This document shows, one piece after another, positions 23,227-24,260 of a stretch of 26,426 nucleotides of DNA (its first letter is position 1; each line of letters opens with the position of its first letter). This DNA comes from Alteraurantiacibacter sp. (GTDB taxonomy: Bacteria > Pseudomonadota > Alphaproteobacteria > Sphingomonadales > Sphingomonadaceae): contig DASWIR010000113.1 in the NCBI GenBank assembly GCA_036397575.1, positions 1 to 26,426 on the forward strand. The letters are read 5' to 3'. The position numbers and the translations under genes are program-made. The notes under the pieces were generated by a model. It ran no database searches, was not told the origin of the DNA, and saw only the letters and a program-made list of their open reading frames with translations.

Positions 23227-23632
23227 GCTTTGCAGCCTGCTGGTCGGGGCGGCGCTGGTTACTGCAATCGGTGCCGCCCCGGCCGGTGCTCAATCGCTTT
23301 CCGATGGCGATTATGAACAATGCGCGGTCCATCGCGACGGCGAGTTCGTCGGCCATGACAGCGTGTGCGTGGAGGCCAAGCGCGCCGCGATCCGGCGGCT
23401 GGAGCAGGACGATGACGGGCGGCACGGGCGCTACCGGCGCGATCGCAACGATAGGCACTATTCGTCAGTCTATCGCTGTCCAAACTGGGCCAATGGCGGG
23501 CACGGATACAAAGCCACCTGGTATTCGGATGGGCGCCCGGCATCGTTGATGGGTGCCTATACCTATGACGCGACGATGGATGGCCGCCCCTGCATCCCCC
23601 ACCCTGCCTATTACGGTTCGGGCTATCCATAA
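23219..23632 (+). CDS. Secreted hypothetical protein, 4 Cys (start 23207 or 23219)
   Basis: Signal peptide ending AAPAGA-Q; coupled to the upstream stop codon; no recognised family. Confidence 0.7.
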   Translation: MTKLCSLLVGAALVTAIGAAPAGAQSLSDGDYEQCAVHRDGEFVGHDSVCVEAKRAAIRRLEQDDDGRHGRYRRDRNDRHYSSVYRCPNWANGGHGYKATWYSDGRPASLMGAYTYDATMDGRPCIPHPAYYGSGYP

Positions 23633-23644
23633 GGAAATAGCATG
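23606..23644 (+). repeat. 39-bp direct repeat ending in a start codon, copy 1 (partner 24222-24260)
   Basis: GCCTATTACGGTTCGG is identical in both copies; 32/39 ungapped through AGGAAA to ATG. Confidence 0.85.
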
Positions 23645-24175
23645 CCAGCCAACGATCCATTGCAGCGGGCGCCCCTGAAACGTGCCGGCCTGGCTTTGCT
23701 CGCCGCGCTCGCCTGCACGGCACCCGCCGCGGCGCAGACACTGAGTATTGCGGACACCCTAGCTTATATTAATGAGTACTGCGATGGCCACAAGCTGTCG
23801 GATAGGGTCGTCACAGTAACGACAGGCCGTGTAACCTCGACGGGATCACAGGTTTCAATAAATAATGAACTAGAATACCTTAATTCTGAACGGGCTGGAT
23901 TCCGTACATCTAAATCATTTGATCTTCGTCAAGTCGATATTGAAAAGGAAATTTCCACTCATCCTAGCAAATACGGAATCAAATTTACATGTTTAGATGG
24001 CAATTGCATTTCTTGGTCTACTCGGTTCGATGGCCAGCCCGAAGGTGATAAGGCGACGAACTCCATCACACATATCGATTGTCGCGAACCAGATCGTGTG
24101 GCCAGTGCCTTCAAACGGCTGCAGCAATTGGTCGGCGGCCGGATATTCGATCTCATCGATCCCTTTGAGAATTGA
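23642..24175 (+). CDS. Secreted hypothetical protein, 4 Cys, low-GC mature domain
   Basis: RBS AAGGA, signal peptide ending TAPAAA-Q, ends ...LIDPFEN. Confidence 0.8.
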   Translation: MPANDPLQRAPLKRAGLALLAALACTAPAAAQTLSIADTLAYINEYCDGHKLSDRVVTVTTGRVTSTGSQVSINNELEYLNSERAGFRTSKSFDLRQVDIEKEISTHPSKYGIKFTCLDGNCISWSTRFDGQPEGDKATNSITHIDCREPDRVASAFKRLQQLVGGRIFDLIDPFEN

Positions 24176-24221
24176 AACTGGCCGCTGCGATCACTTGCAA
24201 ACGGCTCACCTTACCCATCTG

Positions 24222-24260
24222 GCCTATTACGGTTCGGCCCACCCATTAGGAAAGACAATG
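24222..24260 (+). repeat. 39-bp direct repeat ending in a start codon, copy 2
   Basis: See 23606-23644; the copies start 616 bp apart. Confidence 0.85.

Follow-up and report, generated by a model that had tools for sequence, protein, structure and literature searches.

[quoted passage not shown] 2017, PMC5361080). The displacement idea has also been put forward for orphan modules of Rhs and CDI systems (PMC5361080). In these systems a new module is placed behind a conserved upstream anchor, and the old downstream gene is pushed back together with the 3′ remnant of its predecessor; the arrays differ between relatives and no dedicated recombinase takes part. The same traits are seen at the locus described here, which lies in the window, i.e. 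the whole stretch of 26,426 nucleotides that was analysed. Gene B stands behind gene A, and the following gene C is preceded by a remnant of the 3′ end of A. The locus differs from T6SS displacement in that the anchor gene A is still complete and no new effector has taken its place, and from the T6SS orphan strings in that only one such duplication is present. Unlike the T6SS, Rhs and CDI modules, its genes encode small Sec-type secreted proteins with four cysteines under two membrane wHTH regulators, and T6SS, Rhs or CDI genes are absent from it.

Integron cassettes offer a second comparison. As in a cassette array, a single promoterless gene is bracketed by repeats within a co-oriented array, and its removal would keep the array order. 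Unlike the integron cassettes, which rely on IntI and attC, the locus has no integrase on its contig, no attC-like palindrome and no site common to the other junctions; moreover, the repeat is here coding sequence of the neighbouring gene. The third comparison is with deletions between short direct repeats (microhomology or slipped-strand events). The repeats of 6–16 nt, 0.5–0.6 kb apart, could likewise give a rare and precise loss of one gene. Such deletion is a generic mutational process and not a system, and for B only a crossover within the 6-nt AGGAAA would restore a functional junction. Overall, we judge the repeat pair to be the ordinary scar of an insertion into a remodelled operon; scars of this kind are known, and this is a new example.

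Organization of the operon

The repeats are located within a co-oriented operon of small secreted proteins (g137, an 83-aa protein, A, B and C) under two wHTH regulators. The features of the operon in the window are as follows.

19716–20579, operon sense: regulator with Trans_reg_C and receiver domains (domain scan)
20629–22467, operon sense: regulator with Trans_reg_C and TPR domains, regTPR (domain scan)
22943..22944, no strand: site of one-gene presence or absence; the conspecific contigs L054 and L055 carry here 500 nt with a 154-aa secreted protein of family f20, which the window lacks
23192..23632, + strand: gene A, secreted, four invariant Cys, C-terminal motif PxYYGSGYP; start uncertain, ATG 23192 or GTG 23219
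23642..24175, + strand: gene B, the probable inserted gene; secreted, 177 aa, 4 Cys, conserved ends and variable middle
24176..24213, + strand: 3′ flank of B, 38 nt, conserved with the flank after B in loci L016 and L051; travels with B
24258..24659, + strand: gene C, secreted, 133 aa, directly after A in most relatives, fast-evolving
24699..26426, + strand: 5′ part of a large secreted protein (688 aa where contigs contain it in full), which comes after C in the usual gene order

Beyond the large protein, longer contigs encode further proteins of 186, 570 and 231 aa. Genomes of Sphingomonadales, Caulobacterales and the Hyphococcus-like group share this conserved operon (loci L019–L032 and window positions 19716–26426); its common content is membrane wHTH regulators, small secreted proteins with four Cys, a large protein of 400–690 aa and three f1-family proteins. 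The secreted members of these loci carry no Pfam or NCBIfam annotation, and the scan with both collections gave no family for the secreted proteins of the window, including A and B. A search of the ESM Atlas with A and B returned unnamed neighbours, none of them usable for the prediction of a function.

Gene A has 41 homologues, found in Sphingopyxis, Brevundimonas, Hyphococcus and others, and its invariant residues are taken from the alignment of this family. The A proteins share 65–78% amino-acid identity across genera, and a single A is present in the genome studied. The preliminary description had placed the start of A at GTG 23219; the ATG at 23192 is the alternative, and the choice between the two is uncertain.

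Gene B is far rarer: six homologues were found among 5.8 billion proteins. They are 40–49% identical overall with a hypervariable middle, and the ends of B align with L016 at 78–81%. The GC content falls to 33–45% in the core of B (about 23775–24075) and amounts to 55–60% in its signal-peptide and C-terminal ends. B was not found in any of 400 further species genomes of the same family, where the other hits match the signal peptide only. Comparison of gene C with its homologue in the Logan contig L051 gave identities of 90/84/84% at codon positions 1/2/3. Non-synonymous change in C thus proceeds about as fast as synonymous change between the two, and the third codon of C is CTA, TTA, GTA or ATA across four haplotypes. 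The similar divergence of C at its three codon positions and the hypervariable core of B raise the possibility that the operon is under diversifying selection.

The repeat pair

The repeat search in the window identified one family of direct repeats (n = 1), with copies at 23598–23644 and 24214–24260. They are 47 nt long, identical at 37 of the 47 positions (79%), and spaced 616 nt from start to start. Their parts are the following.

23598..23644, + strand: copy 1, made up of the final 33 coding nt of A with its stop TAA and of the 9-nt spacer GGAAATAGC with the start codon ATG of B; native A–B junction
24214..24248, + strand: tail part of copy 2, a non-coding, decaying relic of the last 11 codons of A, in which the stop TAA is now TTA
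24249..24260, + strand: spacer part of copy 2, GGAAAGACA and the ATG of C; native A–C ribosome-binding junction

The 39-nt spans 23606–23644 and 24222–24260 are identical at 32 positions, with an exact core of 16 nt (GCCTATTACGGTTCGG), and each ends with the RBS and the ATG of the next gene. The repeats are therefore as they had been described before. Copy 1 reads …PHPAYYGSGYP up to the stop of A at 23630–32, which bears out its earlier assignment to the 3′ end of A; after the 9-nt spacer, B then starts with ATG at 23642. Copy 2 has …HLAYYGSAHPL, and a 9-nt spacer separates it from the start codon ATG of C at 24258. The exact runs between the copies measure, in order, 4, 1, 0, 16, 1, 1, 4, 6, 1, 0 and 3 nt.

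The core GCCTATTACGGTTCGG occurs exactly twice in the window, even when up to three mismatches are allowed, and two matches were reached in none of 100 dinucleotide shuffles. The assembly searched comprises 2.55 Mb in 486 contigs and is 75% complete; in the rest of it the core is matched only at two mismatches and as often as in the reversed-pattern control, which indicates chance matches. An assembly artefact is ruled out, since 10 or more independent contigs from JGI, ENA and Logan, with 98–100% identity, have the arrangement A–B–relic–C.

Gene order in related loci and the origin of copy 2

The gene following A varies among the related loci.

B directly after A: window, L016, L018, L023, L024
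C directly after A: L019, L025, L026, L028, L031, with a spacing of 8–10 nt
Large gene directly after A: L027, L029

In Sphingopyxis, Tsuneonella and Citromicrobium loci, a C homologue begins 8–10 nt after A and precedes the large gene. Given the adjacency of A and C in several genera, B is extra to a widespread A–C order, and A–C is the ancestral order. At the A–C junction of the Sphingopyxis-type locus L019, which reads CCTATTACGGCTCCGGTTATCCT TGA GGAGGAAAGA ATG, the spacer GGAGGAAAGA is closer to the copy 2 spacer GGAAAGACA than to the copy 1 spacer GGAAATAGC. A and B are separated by 9 nt in the window, L023, L024 and L016; in L018 the A tail is truncated and the spacer behind it is shorter. 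The placement of B between A and C is confined to this lineage and a few metagenomic ones. A metagenome scan with C detected only two near-identical loci, both with B, and a genome of the same genus (83% complete) gave no A, B or C hit and was thus of no use for comparison.

Copy 2 can be recognised as a tail of A by its sequence. The A family ends with PxYYGSGYP, copy 2 of the window reads AYYGSAHPL, and the corresponding stretch of L051 reads HPAYYGSGHPS. The family alignment and L051 thereby confirm and extend the earlier reading of copy 2 as a non-coding relic of the 3′ end of A. The relic does not span the entire B–C spacer. The 38-nt flank downstream of B resembles gene A no more than shuffled sequences do, which rules out such a long relic, and an apparent ‘GRC’ match is a chance one. 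The nucleotide alignment of L016 to the window ends at 24223, about the start of copy 2; the segment from 24176 to about 24221 is thus the flank belonging to B itself. L016 shares the first ~12 nt of the relic and then switches to the tail of another gene, which suggests that the relic is of still older origin than the split between the window and L051 lineages. Copy 1 and the relic are more alike than either is to the A tails of other B-carrying lineages. This likeness would fit a duplication within the lineage or a Campbell-type single crossover with a circular fragment as well as an import.

Relics of gene tails are also found elsewhere in the operon family. In L017 (493–566), the 74 nt between f20 and B can be aligned without gaps (39 of 61 positions) to the junction and A tail of L023, with a score of 17; shuffled sequences scored 10 ± 1.5, and 1 of 300 reached 17. 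About 60 nt of the A tail are thus left before B, and A has been deleted in L017 except for this tail. In L016 (850–910) and L023 (6958–7019), the spacer between B and f1 holds the decayed 3′ end of the 186-aa gene x (…CLSGRVPAKYIEAGTQE and …VWVKASYIEVGTPG, against …CLSGWVSAKYIEVRTQG and the stop in x), from which it follows that C, the large gene and most of x have been lost there. The relics in L017, L016 and L023 mark independent deletions. The recurrent survival of 40–70 nt of a tail is most simply explained by selection, as only those rearrangements persist that keep the translation-initiation region of the next gene.

These deletions bear on another explanation of copy 2, according to which the ancestor had the order A–B–A2–C (or A–A2–C) and a tandem paralogue A2 was deleted except for its last ~35 nt, with no insertion involved. 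Deletions that leave 40–70 nt of a 3′ end before the next gene are documented three times in the operon family, and the relic is nearest to the A tail of its own lineage, as this explanation would have it. However, two A genes flanking B are absent among the ~45 loci examined, A is single in the genome studied, and an extra duplication step is needed. We regard a tandem paralogue as an unlikely source of copy 2.

Age and decay of the relic

The contig L051 is 86% identical to window positions 24156–24663, and its C is 78% identical at the amino-acid level. It has the same order as the window, with the 3′ end of B, the flank, the relic and C. The duplication is consequently older than the split of the window and L051 lineages, and the arrangement has persisted across ~14% nucleotide divergence. 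The relic of L051 is less decayed than that of the window: it is 90% identical to the A tail of the window, and the old stop is TCA (TTA in the window). The identities between the window and L051 are as follows.

3′ flank of B: 82%
Relic: 83%
Third codon positions of C: 84%
Spacer and ATG: 12/12

Since the relic has diverged as far as the third codon positions of C and the spacer has not changed, the relic decays about neutrally, at the rate of synonymous sites, and the RBS spacer of C is the sole constrained part of copy 2. In the near-clonal contigs L054 and L055, the flank and relic differ from the window at 16 of 84 positions (24181–24264), and the relic has acquired four substitutions and a 2-nt deletion inside the 16-nt core.

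It is very unlikely, on the same evidence, that copy 2 has been kept as a functional element upstream of the RBS of C, such as a regulator site, an RNA structure or a translation enhancer. The perfect conservation of the RBS spacer in L051 would agree with such a role, and so would the recurrence of tail relics before retained genes, for which selection to keep the translation-initiation region intact could be responsible. Against it, the relic diverges like synonymous sites outside the 9-nt spacer and carries an indel in a near-clonal strain. The predicted fold of 24160–24280 is no better than that of shuffled sequences (z = 0.27), with no hairpin, and neither an Rfam match nor a promoter or terminator match was obtained at the repeats. 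A regulatory RNA, a promoter and a terminator are thereby rejected for copy 2, where the searches gave no match.

The repeats as possible substrates for excision

According to the preliminary description, recombination between the repeats would cleanly excise B and leave the operon translatable. This does not hold for the exact core. The stop of the relic is now TTA and in frame with C, so a crossover in the core fuses A to C; the product lacks the stop of A and is an A–C fusion of 279 aa with the signal peptide of C in its interior. A clean junction is recreated only by a crossover in AGGAAA. Efficient RecA recombination usually needs 20–30 bp of identity. The longest exact identity between the copies is 16 nt, and both in length and identity and in its product the pair falls short of what RecA-type excision would take.

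Site-specific recombination leaves no trace at the locus either. Tyrosine recombinase domains (PF00589) were found on contigs C428, C48, C298 and C331 of the assembly and not on the contig of the window, C113, and the Pfam scan detected no integrase among the large open reading frames of the window. The segment 24176–24260 contains no inverted repeat and hence no attC-like imperfect palindrome. The absence of attC sites had been stated correctly, as the fold value given above also indicates, and an integron is ruled out by the missing integrase, inverted repeat and hairpin and by the presence of the core only twice in the genome. Target-site duplications of transposons are usually 2–14 bp long. 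A transposon with such a duplication is ruled out as well, because B has no transposase domain, its ends carry no inverted repeats and the duplication measures ~44 nt.

Further copies of the repeat had been anticipated in relatives. None of 31 related loci contains a second copy of its own A tail above shuffled sequences, the window scoring 22.5 against a control maximum of 13.5. The joint that loss of the 616 nt would create was not detected among the contigs of four runs, and all conspecific contigs retrieved from JGI, ENA and Logan (L013–L015, L052–L058) retain A–B–relic–C.

One contig from a soil metagenome of 2025 (run X11) has a different structure. It is 167 nt long with a depth of 6.5 and matches 23505–23644 with five mismatches (135/140). 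From the position of the B ATG it continues straight into the start of C (AAAATATTTGCCGCAGCCATTCCCGCG), over 27 nt of which 25 are as in the C of the window. It co-occurs with B-carrying contigs in the same run. Its A tail is 96% identical to that of the window; for B-carrying conspecific strains the value is 94–95%. The contig is a single one and is known from its mismatch counts and its loose end. With only five mismatches over 140 nt, its tail is of the intact A type, and it is therefore not the product of a crossover in the core. It could be the ancestral allele or result from a microhomology deletion. An assembly chimera is less likely, because in no strain seen do the two copies have a 31-mer in common. 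A paralogous A–C locus in the same genome was sought as its source and was not found in the 75%-complete assembly. The contig, a candidate empty-site allele among close relatives, whose other conspecific contigs all have B, suggests that the presence of B may be polymorphic within the species or next to it, which would allow some role for deletion between the repeats.

It had been proposed earlier that the A-tail repeats serve as recombination substrates by which B is precisely and repeatedly gained and lost, and that the array changes in this way. Part of the evidence agrees: the A–C contig of X11 occurs beside B-carrying contigs with an A tail as near to the window as theirs, which fits a secondary loss given that the more distant L051 has B, the content of the array varies among relatives, and a second one-gene indel separates conspecific strains. 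Nevertheless, we consider an active cassette improbable. The exact identity stays below the length for efficient RecA recombination, and a core crossover gives the A–C fusion, which the X11 contig is not. The relic decays neutrally, and its core is already broken in L054 and L055. Such repeats are absent from 31 other loci, joints are absent from the four runs, and B is kept in all of the at least 10 conspecific contigs; the B-less evidence consists of a single 167-nt contig. What stands of the earlier proposal is that the array varies in content, as the gene after A differs (B, C or the large gene) and one contig lacks B; the repeats as the mechanism are not supported. They do not look like a working excision device or recombination site but like a by-product of the insertion, and could at most support rare deletion independent of a recombinase.

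In a broader version, which we hold to be improbable, the conserved final 40–60 nt of the genes in this operon family might act, along with the RBS that comes next, as portable homology through which single genes are swapped, inserted and precisely lost between strains without a recombinase. If this were true, such traffic would be ongoing and would have left the B-less contig and the nearly invariant B open reading frame amid diverged flanks as its traces.

Proposed history of the locus

We propose that copy 2 is probably an insertion scar, formed when B was placed behind A by homology-facilitated illegitimate recombination and the tail of the resident A was stranded before C. The ancestral operon would have contained A, C, the large gene, x and three f1 genes, with the RBS of C located 9–10 nt after the stop of A. 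In the ancestor of the window species and the L051 lineage, B would have arrived behind a complete A and with its own 38-nt 3′ flank. The join would have fallen inside the resident A, ~35 nt short of its end, so that the tail of A and the A–C spacer were kept before C and are now found downstream of B. The likeliest route would be recombination anchored in the conserved A and upstream region, with an illegitimate join on the other side. The data establish the duplication, its derivation from the A tail, the ancestral adjacency of A and C, the age of the scar and its neutral decay; the one-sided homology and the direction of the event, i.e. the gain of B here and not its loss elsewhere, are inferred. 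The stranded tail has since been non-coding and has decayed nearly neutrally, with the RBS spacer needed by C alone being conserved.

Two observations match what displacement is expected to leave behind. The 3′ remnant of an upstream gene lies directly 5′ of the retained gene in copy 2 and likewise in L017, L016 and L023. Furthermore, the A anchor is common to loci with and without B, and B is absent from most relatives. The predicted joint is at about 24213/24214. The flank of L016 already runs into the start of the relic, and no donor was found in which the flank continues otherwise.

Through the scar, one gene gain can be dated and oriented, in an operon for secreted four-Cys proteins that occurs widely in Alphaproteobacteria and is uncharacterised. 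Taken with the three or four tail relics and two strain-level indels, the scar shows that the content of the operon turns over by illegitimate and short-homology recombination and not by a dedicated cassette system. This is of use to anyone studying the operon and opens no new mechanism, the repeat alone being a scar of the textbook type.

Strain-level variation

The f20 segment (L055:6238–6737 and L054:54–553) is carried by strains ~98% identical to the window; the conspecific contigs L056–L058 are also without it. Members of family f20 are found in L023 and L017 too. Both ends of the segment share TCATGAA(A/G)AA. This indel, with microhomology of the TCATGAA type at both ends, is like the deletions between short direct repeats, and its ends suggest that exactly one gene may have been lost by a microhomology deletion.

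The same strains form a mosaic. Over kilobases of background the window does not differ from L055 or L054. Across 21750–23599, a stretch that runs from the 3′ end of regTPR through g137, the f20 indel and the 83-aa gene into A, the divergence from L055 is ~7%. The open reading frame of B (23600–24180) then differs by one SNP from L055 and by 0–1 SNP among conspecific strains, and the following segment 24181–24264 is 19% different (16 in 84 nt). Several recombinant haplotypes of A occur among the contigs L013–L015 and L053–L055, and the mosaic breakpoints do not coincide with the repeat pair. B thus stays nearly identical between strains with flanks 6–19% apart and has moved or swept recently by some recombination route; judging from this pattern of differences, ordinary homologous recombination has evidently spread or retained the allele with the low-GC core across diverged local backgrounds. 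A 15-nt in-frame deletion polymorphism in g137 (22858–22876) further distinguishes the window from L055 and L058.
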